Source: an uncultured Sulfolobales archaeon (GTDB lineage: Archaea; Thermoproteota; Thermoprotei_A; Sulfolobales; NBVN01). Taken from it: a stretch of 64,000 nucleotides of DNA. The notes under the pieces are model-generated. The model searched no databases and was not told where the DNA came from. It saw nothing but the letters and a program-made list of their open reading frames with translations. The stretch is taken from contig CALIKV010000010.1 of NCBI GenBank assembly GCA_938017505.1, positions 76,720 to 140,719 of the forward strand, in the 5' to 3' direction. This document shows, in pieces, positions 16,767 to 60,525 of the stretch. Within the stretch, counting starts at the first letter, position 1. Every line of letters begins with the position of its first letter. The position numbers were made by a program, and so were the translations under genes.

Positions 16767-17840
16767 GTGAGTAAGGACGTTAAGGAATATAAACTTATGT
16801 TTGCCCTAGAGTCTTTTGATCTAGGGGTTTACACGGTGGGTAGTTGGGTGGATAGGCTGCGTGAATCTACGGTGATCGTAATGGGCGCTGGAGGGGGCGG
16901 TGACGTTGTTACCGCCTACACCTTCTGCAAGGTGCTTGAGGACGTTGTAGGAACTCGCGTGTGCGTGCCCTTAGGGGTTCTCTGGGAGAGGTGGGTCACC
17001 GATCCGTATCCAGGACCCGTTCCTAAAGGCAGTATTAAAAACGCGGAGCTCCGTGAGTGCGTGTGGGTTAATGAGAGGACCTACGTCACGCGGGGCAAGC
17101 ACTCGTTTAAACCCCACGTCACGTACGTCGCTGAAGTCCTCGGCAGGGAAGTCCCCGCAACCACCTTAGAGCACGGCGTTGAGGGGGCTTACAAGTGCTT
17201 TAAAGAGTTGGAGGATCTGTACGGCGAGGCACTTTTATTAGATCTCGACGTGGGCGGCGATATACTTGCAGAGGGCTGGGAGGAGAACCTGTGGTCGCCG
17301 TTAGCGGATTCAATCACTCTAGCAGCCACGGCCAGGGTTAACGGGCTTGTGGGCGTGGCAGCACCTGGGGCTGACGGTGAGTTACCACAGAGCCTGGTCA
17401 TGCAGAGGATCAGCGACGTGCTCAGCATGGATGGCTACGTAGGCGTCCTAGGTTTCTGGGAGCATCACAGGGCCTTCTACGAGGGTTTAATAGACCGGGT
17501 TAAGACTGAAGCCAGTAGGACCCCCTACCTAGCTCTCAAGGGCGAGGTAGGAGTCAAGGGAATCAGAGGCGGTAGTAGGGTGGTAGAAGTAAACGCAACC
17601 ACACTTACGGTGTTCCTGTTGAGGAGCGAGCAAGTCCTCAGAATCAATAAACTAGCCCAGAGAATAGGACACACGAGATCCCTTGCTGAGGCTTGGATTG
17701 AAGCCAGGAAGCTCGGCATACCAACCGAACTAGACCTTGAAGTGATTGCGTCCAAGAAGTATGGCGTGGGGCCGGAGGCAAGTCCTGACTGGAACAGAGT
17801 GAGGTCAGTGCTTAAGAACCAACACTTAAAAACCTCATAA
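16767..17840 (+). CDS. conserved archaeal hypothetical protein (DUF1152-like, Gly-rich loops)
   Basis: 357-aa ORF with a GTG start. Contains the loops MGAGGGGDVVTA and LDLDVGGDILAEG. The family name is recalled, not verified. Confidence 0.45.
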   Translation: MSKDVKEYKLMFALESFDLGVYTVGSWVDRLRESTVIVMGAGGGGDVVTAYTFCKVLEDVVGTRVCVPLGVLWERWVTDPYPGPVPKGSIKNAELRECVWVNERTYVTRGKHSFKPHVTYVAEVLGREVPATTLEHGVEGAYKCFKELEDLYGEALLLDLDVGGDILAEGWEENLWSPLADSITLAATARVNGLVGVAAPGADGELPQSLVMQRISDVLSMDGYVGVLGFWEHHRAFYEGLIDRVKTEASRTPYLALKGEVGVKGIRGGSRVVEVNATTLTVFLLRSEQVLRINKLAQRIGHTRSLAEAWIEARKLGIPTELDLEVIASKKYGVGPEASPDWNRVRSVLKNQHLKTS

Positions 17841-17846
17841 TAATAA
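17837..17846 (+). promoter_or_regulatory. TATA-like box upstream of initiator tRNA
   Basis: ATAATAATAA is centred about 24-27 nt upstream of tRNA position 1 (17865). Confidence 0.5.
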
Positions 17847-17864
17847 GGAATGGGGGGATGAAAT

Positions 17865-18089
17865 AGCGGGGTGGGGTAGCCAGGTTAGCCCGCGGGGCTC
17901 ATAATGCCCCGGTAGACCCTTAAGTCCCCCCGCCATTCAACGCGTGAAAAACCACGCGCAAAGCGCATCACTGAAGAATGGAAGGTGAGAAAATATTTAT
18001 AAGCGCTATCCTATTAATTAGATACGAGGGTCTACCGGGAGCGATGAGGGACCCCGAGGTCGGTGGTTCAAATCCACCCCCCGCTACCA
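17865..18089 (+). tRNA. initiator tRNA-Met (CAU), interrupted by a 147-nt intron; CCA encoded
   Basis: - **Cloverleaf:** it was drawn by hand.
- **Acceptor and initiator signatures:** the acceptor stem is AGCGGGG/CCCCGCU with an A1:U72 pair. The anticodon stem is CGGGG/CCCCG, carrying the three G:C pairs typical of initiators.
- **Anticodon and T-arm:** the anticodon CAT is at 17900-17902. The T-arm is GGTGG-TTCAAAT-CCACC.
- **Exons:** the exons are 17865-17903 and 18051-18089. Confidence 0.9.
17904..18050 (+). other. tRNA intron at canonical 37/38 position (147 nt)
   Basis: The anticodon CTCAT pairs with intron ATGAG (18044-18048). A helix of about 15 bp forms between GCCCCGGTAGACCCT (17906-17920) and AGGGTCTACCGGGAGC (18027-18042). 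Together these give a bulge-helix-bulge-like fold. The junction is ambiguous by 1 nt (A/A). Confidence 0.8.
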
Positions 18090-18167
18090 CTTCCTCAGGC
18101 CACGCGTTAGTCTAGGATACGTCAGTCTAATATTTAGCGCTCTAACAATTATTCTGGGGGTATTTGT

Positions 18168-19016
18168 TTGGGGCTTGAGAATCTATTCGTAGGCCCTGCG
18201 GGAATTCCGTTAAGCGCTAAGGGGATGGGGGTTATCGACGGTGTTAAGAAAGTTAGGGAGCTTGGCTTAAGCGCTATGGAGATTGAGTTTGTGAGAGGCA
18301 TTTGGCTTAAGCCTACCGAGACCTCGTCGCTGAGGAACACTGCACGTGATGTCAGCGTTATTTTAACGGTCCACGCACCTTACTACATCAACTTACTCTC
18401 CAAGGAGGAGAGCACCCTTAATGCCTCTATTAAGCGGATTACTGACTCAGCAAGGCTTGGCTACTTGGCTGGCGCTTGGTCCGTCGTCTTCCACTCAGGC
18501 TATTACGGTAAGTTAAGCTCTGAGAAAGCTGTTGACGTCGTTAAGAACGTTCTAAGGAGGGTGATTGGCGAGCTAATGAATGAGGGTGTAAGGATATGGG
18601 TCAGACCTGAGACGATGGGTGGGTTAGCCGAGTTCGGATCCCTTGAGGAGGTAGTCTCGGTTGTAGAGGGTGTTGAGATGGCGAATGTAGCTCTTGACTT
18701 CGCCCATCTCTACGCTAGGAGCAGAGGCGCTTTTAACAGGCTGAGAGACTTCACCGGGGCATTAGAACTCATAGAGTCTAGGCTGGGTAGTGAAGCGCTG
18801 AAGGAGATGCACATACACCTCTCAGGCATAGAGTACGGTGACAGAGGCGAGAGAAGGCACGTAGACTTCGAGGACTCTACTTTTAATTGGGTTGATGTCC
18901 TTCAGGCACTTAAGGATTACGACGTTAAGGGAGTAATTATATGTGAGTCACCCAGCCTGGAAAGTGATGCCCTATTGATACAGAGGGAGCTAAGTAGTAG
19001 GTTCAGCCGCACTTGA
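18168..19016 (+). CDS. TIM-barrel AP-endonuclease-2 / xylose-isomerase-like family protein (endonuclease IV-like)
   Basis: 282 aa with the pattern FVGPAGIP...ELGLSAMEIEF...HAPYYINL...VFHSGYY...RPETMG...LDFAHL...HIHLSG. This is characteristic of the Nfo/AP-endonuclease-2 TIM-barrel family. Confidence 0.7.
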   Translation: MGLENLFVGPAGIPLSAKGMGVIDGVKKVRELGLSAMEIEFVRGIWLKPTETSSLRNTARDVSVILTVHAPYYINLLSKEESTLNASIKRITDSARLGYLAGAWSVVFHSGYYGKLSSEKAVDVVKNVLRRVIGELMNEGVRIWVRPETMGGLAEFGSLEEVVSVVEGVEMANVALDFAHLYARSRGAFNRLRDFTGALELIESRLGSEALKEMHIHLSGIEYGDRGERRHVDFEDSTFNWVDVLQALKDYDVKGVIICESPSLESDALLIQRELSSRFSRT

Positions 19017-22424: not shown

Positions 22425-22502
22425 TGGCGGGCCCGCCGGGATTTGAACCCGGGGTCTCCGGCTCCGGAGGCCGGCGCCTTATCCTGGCTAGGCCACGGGC
22501 CC
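22425..22502 (-). tRNA. tRNA-Arg (CCG), CCA encoded
   Basis: Reverse complement is GGGCCCG-TG-GCCT..AGGC-G-CCGGC-CTCCGGA-GCCGG-AGACC-CCGGG-TTCAAAT-CCCGG-CGGGCCC-G-CCA. The anticodon is CCG. Confidence 0.95.
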
Positions 22503-60187: not shown

Positions 60188-60440
60188 GGACTCTAAAACG
60201 TATACTCGCGGTACTCGTACAGTGGTTCAAAAATCCAGGTGCCGCGCTCCACGCGACTCCGCATGGCATGCGGCTAGAAAACTGTGCGGTGGGGAACTCG
60301 AAGAGGGTGATGTTTTATGACACAGTGGCGAAGGCATACCACCGCTATCCTTGTACAGCTACAATGAGGCTCATAAGCGACTGTGACGTGTTGACTTTGA
60401 ATCTGGGGTATGGTGACTACACCGGGACTAGAAGTATTAG

Positions 60441-60525
60441 TGCGGGGGGTGGGATTTGAACCCACGCAGGCCTACGCCATCAGGGCCTAAGCCTGACCCC
60501 TTTGACCTGGCTCGGGCACCCCCGC
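60441..60525 (-). tRNA. tRNA-Leu (UAG), long variable arm, no encoded CCA
   Basis: Reverse complement is GCGGGGG-TG-CCCGAGCCAGGTCAAAGGGG-TCAGG-CTTAGGC-CCTGA-TGGCGTAGGCCTGC-GTGGG-TTCAAAT-CCCAC-CCCCCGC-A. Confidence 0.93.

Follow-up and report, generated by a model that had tools for sequence, protein, structure and literature searches.

A probable pair of adjacent initiator tRNA half-genes in an uncultured Sulfolobales archaeon, with intact and dispersed forms of the gene among its relatives

How split transfer RNA (tRNA) genes come about, as relics of an ancient state or through recent accidents, has been debated since 2005, and very few natural intermediates are known. In Aeropyrum pernix, the tRNA-Asp(GUC) gene was taken to carry a "121-nt intron" but proved to consist of two neighboring halves with separate transcription: a strong same-strand promoter lies 20-25 nucleotides (nt) ahead of the 3' exon, adjoining a G/C stem of 14 bp, and northern blots of this tRNA revealed the two halves and not the full precursor (Chan, Cozen and Lowe 2011, PMC3218864). 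A split initiator tRNA is listed in that study only for Nanoarchaeum equitans, while a 2014 review counted 29 trans-spliced tRNA genes in seven genomes, and in the literature that we searched there was no report for the Zestosphaera lineage. Here, we describe an initiator tRNA-Met gene on a contig of an uncultured Sulfolobales archaeon (GenBank assembly GCA_938017505.1, contig CALIKV010000010.1, positions 76,720 to 140,719 of the forward strand; this whole stretch of 64,000 nt is called the window, and positions below are counted from its first letter). The evidence favors reading positions 17825-18089 as two adjacent initiator half-genes, joined at the RNA level through a bulge-helix-bulge (BHB) motif, rather than as one gene interrupted by an ordinary long intron. 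Seen together with its relatives, the lineage is best read as showing a tRNA gene in the process of splitting, with intact, adjacent, and dispersed states among close kin.

With introns allowed, ARAGORN calls a tRNA-Met(CAT) gene on the forward strand with an insert at the canonical position 37/38 (Table 1). The spliced exons form a 78-nt cloverleaf, called tRNA-Met(cat) by the same program, and this product is base for base the intron-less initiator gene of Zestosphaera tikiterensis (L010), whose mature sequence scores 65.1 bits against the Rfam tRNA model (RF00005); because of this identity, the exon bounds are fixed independently of any predictor. An A1:U72 pair and three consecutive G:C pairs closing the anticodon stem are the identity marks of archaeal initiator tRNAs. 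Both are present in the sequence and in the ARAGORN drawing (G29-G31 with C39-C41, i.e., 29:41, 30:40, and 31:39), as is the CAU anticodon, and no second initiator-like anticodon arm occurs in the 64-kb window. An earlier note on this DNA, made from the letters alone, had named the initiator identity, the exon bounds, and the 147-nt interruption at 37/38, all of which are borne out here. It had also described the insert as far longer than usual, which agrees with the published range of 11-129 nt and median of 15 nt for archaeal tRNA introns (Chan, Cozen and Lowe 2011, PMC3218864), and as too short for a homing endonuclease. The latter holds as well, the sole ATG-initiated frame stopping after three codons, and on these two grounds (length and frame) we rejected a mobile intron carrying a homing endonuclease. 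The gene is missed by ARAGORN with default settings and by Rfam at the gathering threshold, which yield only tRNA-Arg(CCG) at 22425-22502 and tRNA-Leu(UAG) at 60440-60525 in the window.

The junctions of exons and insert form a canonical splice motif. In a register set by hand, the central helix of the BHB joins C32-A35 to T18045-G18048 by four perfect pairs (CTCA/TGAG), which is the pairing of insert and anticodon that the earlier note had seen, and the flanking 3-nt bulges are T36-A37^A17904 (UA^A) and G18049-G18050^A38 (GG^A), each with its cut after the second bulge base. The long closing helix, previously put at about 15 bp, has 14 contiguous pairs (17908-17921 with 18026-18039) and continues for three more past two single-base bulges. 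Folding of the entire precursor gives -95.3 kcal/mol, a value at z = -5.1 relative to shuffles. This helix is specific to its own strands, with -33.1 kcal/mol for the cognate duplex of the window and -12 to -14 kcal/mol when leaders from unrelated families take the place of its own; taken over all families, cognate and within-family duplexes range from -27 to -37 kcal/mol and those between families from -12 to -28 kcal/mol. When the two predicted half-RNAs of the window are folded together, they form the cloverleaf plus an extension helix at -78.8 kcal/mol, versus -63.3 kcal/mol when folded apart.

The nearest named relatives of the proteins flanking the gene belong to Zestosphaera metagenome-assembled genomes (MAGs). 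The insert at 37/38 measures 119 nt in L002 (neighbor protein identity 91%) and 242 nt in L004-L006 (74%), and there is none in Z. tikiterensis (61%), while the exons are 100% identical across all of these and the window. Between the window, L002, and L004-L006, only the two end modules of the insert are kept: a 5' module consisting of one bulge base, a helix strand, and then (G)TCCCCCC(G/A)CCA, and a 3' module consisting of TTTATAAG, about 24 diverged bases, the complementary helix strand, and then the BHB strand.

In a sister clade, homologous modules accompany halves that are truly separate. Free 3' halves, found through a genome scan for exon 2 without a preceding A37 (a pattern that left out intron-less genes by design) and through inspection of neighbor loci, occur at eight loci (L007, L008, L027, L094, L043, L088, L090, and L091). 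Each consists of aaaaCTTTATAAGG, about 24 nt, GGGTCT(A/G)CTGAGGG..GTGAG, and exon 2, and is followed by an endonuclease IV-like gene, with a divergently oriented tRNA-Arg(CCG) upstream and a strong T-rich tract after the 3' half and before the endonuclease IV-like gene; no exon 1 lies within the 3.6-8 kb of these loci. Free 5' halves, reached via homologues of a DUF1152 gene, stand beside that gene in L096, L097, L098, L099, and L150. Their exon 1 is identical to that of the window and is likewise preceded by the CTTAAAAA box and the G-rich leader; it is followed by a trailer of the form TC(A/G)CCCTCAG(T/C)AGACCC and then by G(T)CCCCCCACCA, and no exon 2 lies in the 3.5-6 kb of their loci. The 5'-half trailer ACCCTCAGTAGACCC and the 3'-half leader GGGTCTACTGAGGGT are exactly complementary to each other. 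One 5' half (L096) and one 3' half (L008) come from one assembly and have similar coverage, and the best partner of the L098 5' half (GCAGACC) is the L027 3' half (GGTCTGC), though these two belong to different genomes. Since neither exon differs by a single base between any of the forms, the halves are probably functional. A metagenome scan with GGGGCTCATAN{8,12}GYRGACC returned mostly chance matches, L150 being the only relevant one among the matches listed. Carriage of either half by an integrating virus found no support, neither exon 1 nor exon 2 having an exact match in IMG/VR. Like the window gene, the dispersed halves escape ARAGORN by default and Rfam, such that routine annotation would score these genomes as being without an initiator tRNA.

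The earlier note had pointed out an AT-rich, TATA-like stretch in the insert without interpreting it; the stretch is there, and in our analysis it becomes the key feature. The motif TTTATAA starts 55 nt before exon 2 in the window, and across 17/17 sequences drawn from three families that are unrelated in sequence, the distance from the start of a TATA-like box to exon 2 is 52-56 nt. In the first family (the contiguous genes of the window, L002, and L004-L006 together with the eight free 3' halves), the box is TTTATAA and starts at 52-55 nt; in the second (L015, L019, and L050, with inserts of 139-174 nt), it is TTTTTAAA at 56 nt; and in the third (L061, Aeropyrum MAG, insert of 253 nt), it is CATATAA at 53 nt. 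A 3' half that stands alone needs a promoter of its own; among the free 3' halves, CTTTATAAGG is the sole conserved element in the gap of about 100 nt to the divergent tRNA-Arg gene. No TATA-like box precedes exon 2 in the initiator genes with 15-50-nt introns. We therefore regard TTTATAA as the putative promoter of the 3' half in the window organism. With the usual archaeal spacing between TATA box and start site, transcription of the 3' half would begin near 18024-18026, and the predicted leader of about 25 nt would consist wholly of the helix strand and the BHB strand. Its length falls in the size range tabulated for known split 3' halves (Chan et al., PMC3218864). Alternatively, the box might serve the downstream endonuclease IV-like gene, exon 2 then lying in the 5' untranslated region, as that gene is encoded on the same strand and only 79 nt separate its start from exon 2; this is very unlikely, however, given that the gene has a TATA-like box of its own (TAATATTTAG, 18128-18137, about 31 nt before the start codon) and that the strong T-rich tract of the dispersed forms separates the 3' half from it.

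The 5' half has its own set of conserved elements. The box gcTTAAAAAcc lies at the same distance 5' of exon 1 across all relatives, whether contiguous, dispersed, or intact, and it would promote the 5' half as well as any read-through precursor. Downstream of it, the G-rich leader pairs with the C-rich box of the insert (9 bp, -17.7 kcal/mol by RNAduplex), and equivalent duplexes exist in every relative. In the first family, the C-rich box of every member is complementary to its own leader over 8-9 bp, the leader and box of L098 carrying five G and five C, respectively; the second family has a different leader/box pair, with a compensatory change from A:T to G:C between L015 and L050. These pairings were tabulated by duplex folding, as MAFFT had aligned the indel of L098 in a register that does not fit the leader/box helix. 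Folded alone, the predicted 5' half is closed by the leader/box pairing, though the share of the leader G-run present in the RNA would depend on the assumed transcription start.

What this box ordinarily does can be judged from the short-intron initiator genes of related MAGs (L021, L030, L031, L039, L042, L052, L059, L062, and L085, with 17-18-nt introns), where a leader-complementary box plus CCA is placed directly after the tRNA 3' end and so normally marks the end of the initiator transcription unit. L042 and L062 share a double compensatory change, with GGAGGG in the leader and CCCTCC in the trailer. In the window, the leader-complementary box sits inside the insert, directly after the 5' half, and the sequence 3' of exon 2 has no leader complementarity (z = -0.3). 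We read this placement as further evidence that the 5' half may be, or recently have been, a unit of its own. That the C-rich box is a decayed copy of exon 2 (e.g., from duplication of an integration site) was rejected, since 271-738 of 2000 shuffles align as well. As a separate observation, the leaders of the nine short-intron genes follow (A/C)TGGGGGGTCAAG.C, complementary to trailers of the form (A)(A)CCCCCC(A/G)CCA, and we matched a leader/trailer helix ending in CCA to no described processing signal.

Taken together, these elements suggest the following arrangement. A first unit would comprise the upstream promoter, the G-rich leader, exon 1, a 17-nt helix strand, and the C-rich box plus CCA pairing back to the leader; after a fast-evolving spacer of about 53 nt, a second unit would comprise TTTATAA, about 22-24 nt to the predicted start, a leader of about 25 nt with the complementary helix strand, and exon 2. 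The helix strands could anneal either within a read-through transcript or between two half-transcripts, in both cases forming a canonical BHB at 37/38, whereupon the archaeal splicing endonuclease would cut both bulges and an RtcB-type ligase would join the exons. In this scheme, we infer the firing of the internal promoter, the start sites, and the relative use of the read-through and two-transcript routes.

Several observations weigh against two separate units. There is no T-tract of four or more between 17936 and 17995, and transcripts are therefore likely to run on into exon 2, in which case ordinary splicing of a single transcript may be the main route. The motif TTTATAA is not rare, with 13 occurrences in the window versus about 9 expected, so that the argument from it rests on comparative conservation; and as the window and L002 are close kin, their conservation may be partly inherited rather than selected, which leaves the window versus L004-L006 as the informative comparison of contiguous forms. 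Lastly, the minimum-free-energy fold of the precursor draws neither of the 3-nt bulges. Lack of a terminator after the 5' module and the commonness of TTTATAA would suit an ordinary, unusually long intron that exists only in a full precursor and is spliced within one transcript, the internal TATA box being an unused relic or due to chance, and so would the canonical BHB with its perfect 4-bp central helix and the detection by RT-PCR (reverse-transcription PCR) of a read-through precursor in A. pernix (PMC3218864). We nonetheless think an ordinary intron rather unlikely. The TATA box and its spacing are kept between the window and L004-L006 while the rest of the insert is unalignable, and the free 3' halves have no conserved candidate promoter other than this element. 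Moreover, the last element of the 5' module is one that elsewhere stands at the close of initiator transcription units, whereas the 15-50-nt initiator introns, clearly spliced within one transcript, contain no such box. Two adjacent half-genes thus remain the reading that we consider probable.

The interior of the insert is a different matter. Two elements that the earlier note had described, a hairpin at 17941-17958 and the AGCGC that pairs with GCGCT, are present in the window sequence, but they are absent from L002 and unalignable in L004-L006; being missing from the closest relative, they are spacer rather than conserved structure. Of the long structured intron that the note had proposed, the length stands and the conserved structure is confined to the 5' and 3' modules. 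Its further suggestion of a stable excised-intron RNA found no support, and neither did a C/D-like element. A functional small RNA in the insert, be it a C/D box guide as in euryarchaeal tRNA-Trp introns or a stable circular intron RNA, could draw on one CTGA, some GTGA-like strings, and a 6-bp hairpin in the interior, yet we hold it to be extremely unlikely: a C box (RUGAUGA) is lacking, and the interior is replaced in L002 and cannot be aligned in L004-L006. Rfam at a permissive threshold (E <= 10) returned only chance-level matches over 17780-18170 and no known RNA in the insert. A C/D box RNA was accordingly rejected as a candidate.

Table 1 Features of the initiator tRNA locus, in window positions
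Feature	Position	Strand	Basis
Upstream TATA-like box CTTAAAAA, putative promoter for the 5' half and for read-through precursors, if any	17825-17832	+	Motif location
5' leader TGGGGGGAT, complementary to the C-rich box at 17924-17932	17851-17859	+	RNAduplex
Exon 1, 5' half of the initiator tRNA (positions 1-37, ends CUCAUA)	17865-17903	+	ARAGORN with introns; 100% identical across relatives including free-standing 5' halves
Insert	17904-18050	+	147 nt, ARAGORN with introns
Bulge base of the 5' splice site (A17904), then the closing helix 5' strand (17905-17921)	17904-17921	+	BHB register, fold
Conserved box GTCCCCCCG then CCA, leader-complementary	17924-17935	+	Kept in L002, L004-L006, and free 5' halves L096-L099 and L150
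Variable spacer between the half-genes, including hairpin CGCGTG-AAAAAC-CACGCG (17941-17958)	17936-17988	+	Unalignable with L002 or L004-L006; no Rfam match
A-rich tract and TATA box (TTTATAA, 17996-18002), putative internal promoter of the 3' half	17989-18002	+	Positional conservation
Predicted 3'-half leader: closing helix 3' strand (18026-18044), BHB strand (18045-18048), bulge G18049-G18050	18024-18050	+	Register
Exon 2, 3' half of the initiator tRNA (positions 38-76, CCA encoded)	18051-18089	+	ARAGORN; identical across relatives including free-standing 3' halves

The genes around the tRNA bear on the order of events. In the window, genes for Rrp4, SBDS, and proteasome alpha (-) are followed by DUF1152, the tRNA, and the endonuclease IV-like TIM-barrel gene (+), and exon 2 lies 78-102 nt upstream of the latter in every lineage (79 nt in the window, on the same strand). 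A neighbor-joining tree of the endonuclease IV-like protein places the contiguous clade (the window, L002, and L004-L006) and the dispersed clade as sisters, with Z. tikiterensis outside, and because the two clades are sisters the tree alone gives no direction. It is thus conceivable that the halves were dispersed in the common ancestor and were re-joined in the window lineage, the more so as the dispersed forms keep the splice boundary of the short-intron genes (TA^T ... GTGTGAG) and the contiguous forms have changed it. Such re-joining seems unlikely, however, as the two halves would have had to insert between the very genes that flank the locus, correctly ordered and oriented, and as DUF1152 and the endonuclease IV-like gene adjoin in the outgroup Z. 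tikiterensis, which makes flanks that stand together look ancestral. Because the flanks adjoin there and neither half has lost its flanking gene in either clade, the most economical history is a single disruption in the common ancestor, followed by a rearrangement with its breakpoint in the spacer.

The initiator tRNA is a rearrangement hot spot. Three different contexts are found 3' of the free 5' halves, and they fit repeated rearrangement at the initiator site. In addition, the block of DUF1152 plus tRNA is inverted in Z. tikiterensis (L010 1790-2941) relative to the window (16767-18089), and in Ca. Zestomicrobium (L098 2501-3800) the genes that come after the 5' half are those for the proteasome, SBDS, and Rrp4, with their orientation inverted. 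The tRNA-Arg(CCG) gene, which in the window lies about 4.3 kb downstream of the initiator gene (22425-22502, -), is the immediate divergent neighbor of the 3' half in L007, L008, L027, L043, L088, L090, and L091, and this placement hints at the path of the rearrangement.

Initiator genes of other MAGs are also disrupted, in various ways. Two introns interrupt a single initiator gene in L093 (33 nt at 30/31 and 21 nt at 37/38). In L028 and L024, the gene is split at 30/31 into pieces 361 and 1,348 nt apart on the same strand, with exactly complementary trailer and leader, a 3' piece with its own TATA box, and an intron kept at 37/38; ARAGORN miscalls the L028 gene as a tRNA-Pro with a 322-nt intron, and a 3' piece of this kind also occurs in L078, where 5.4 kb of sequence contain no 5' piece. 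The gap between the pieces in L024 (1,317 nt) contains an open reading frame (ORF) of 378 aa on the opposite strand (gap positions 172-1308) with two LAGLIDADG-like motifs (LGLAMSDGSY and LAGVIDGDGC). Its Pfam scores are below threshold (LAGLIDADG_3 19.4 bits, Hom_end 16.9 bits), and it matches no solved structure by sequence. The LAGLIDADG reading is a weak lead; if real, it would place a homing endonuclease between tRNA halves. In L033, the split is at 37/38 with the halves on one strand, 1,654 nt apart, and an antisense archaeal ATPase_2/DUF234 gene lies between them. In L066 and L067, TTTAAAA or TTTATAA stands at -57 and -53 relative to exon 2, and the short upstream sequence available lacks exon 1; these are probably further free 3' halves. 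A trailer GGGG(G)CCCCGCC(A/G)CCA directly follows exon 2 in L061, L076, L057, L024, L078, L066, L033, and L093, often with a T-run next, and looks like an acceptor-stem mimic ending in CCA. Beyond the initiator, ARAGORN calls a tRNA-Trp with a 104-nt intron in L018 (sub-sequence 144-339), yet its 3' half is tRNA-His-like, and this may be another long-insert or split tRNA.

Counted by sequence, there are at least four unrelated disruptions of the initiator gene, at 37/38 and at 30/31, with halves lying anywhere from 119 nt apart to on different contigs. A wider, tentative idea, which we regard as possible but doubtful, is that the initiator gene is a recurrent target of splitting in uncultured Thermoproteota, that the window gene is a live intermediate, and that the moved box plus CCA, ancestrally the end-of-transcript element, now closes the 5' half into a self-contained RNA. 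If so, the window gene would be expressed as a read-through precursor plus two autonomous half-RNAs, and the leader-complementary box plus CCA would be an undescribed feature that makes a half-gene viable and permits its later dispersal. As the essential initiator tRNA occurs here in three states with homologous modules and the same flanking genes, it can be tested directly in which order the changes took place and what part the internal promoter played.

Among described systems, the tRNA-Trp introns with C/D box RNA of Haloferax and other Euryarchaeota resemble the window insert in exceeding 100 nt and in their canonical position, but they have conserved C, D', C', and D boxes plus guides, whereas the window insert has none of these and an unconserved interior. 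The short (15-50 nt) initiator introns of Sulfolobales, Pyrobaculum, and Thermofilaceae share with the window gene the site, the same or nearly the same exons, the BHB, and the leader/trailer box plus CCA; they differ in having neither an internal TATA box nor a long closing helix, and in carrying the leader-complementary box after the tRNA 3' end. Also comparable are the trans-spliced tRNAs of other crenarchaea, such as tRNA-Lys(CUU) of Staphylothermus and the split and tri-split tRNAs of Caldivirga maquilingensis, whose 3' pieces have their own promoter and a complementary leader, as would be the case here, although these are other tRNAs, partly split at other positions (30/31), with halves kilobases apart. 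The split tRNA-iMet(CAU) of N. equitans (Randau et al. 2005; Table 1 of PMC3218864) is the same tRNA interrupted at the same 37/38 position, and its halves are likewise joined through complementary leader and trailer and a BHB. Its halves lie far apart in a reduced genome with several split tRNAs, while those of the window are 147 nt apart in an apparently free-living member of the Thermoproteota, and the likeness lies in tRNA identity, split position, and mode of joining.

The A. pernix tRNA-Asp(GUC) gene has most in common with the window gene in its layout: it was annotated with an intron of more than 100 nt at 37/38, transcription from a same-strand internal TATA box begins 20-25 nt upstream of the 3' exon, a canonical BHB is adjoined by a G/C-rich stem of 12-15 bp, no C/D box RNA is present, and relatives have an intact gene with a break in synteny at the tRNA. 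For A. pernix, the separate transcripts were demonstrated by northern blot, while those of the window are predicted from sequence. Of the features that define this adjacent-half type, the window has the internal same-strand promoter at the level of the motif (TTTATAA 55 nt before exon 2) and the G/C-rich trailer/leader stem of about 12-15 bp by the BHB (14 + 3 pairs, -33.1 kcal/mol, cognate-specific). Unlike A. pernix tRNA-Asp, the tRNA is the initiator, the lineage is Zestosphaera-like, a sister clade has homologous halves at separate loci, and the 5' half of the window ends in a leader-complementary box plus CCA. As judged from these motifs, the window gene would extend the adjacent-half type to a new tRNA and a new lineage, with dispersed-half relatives that carry the same modules.

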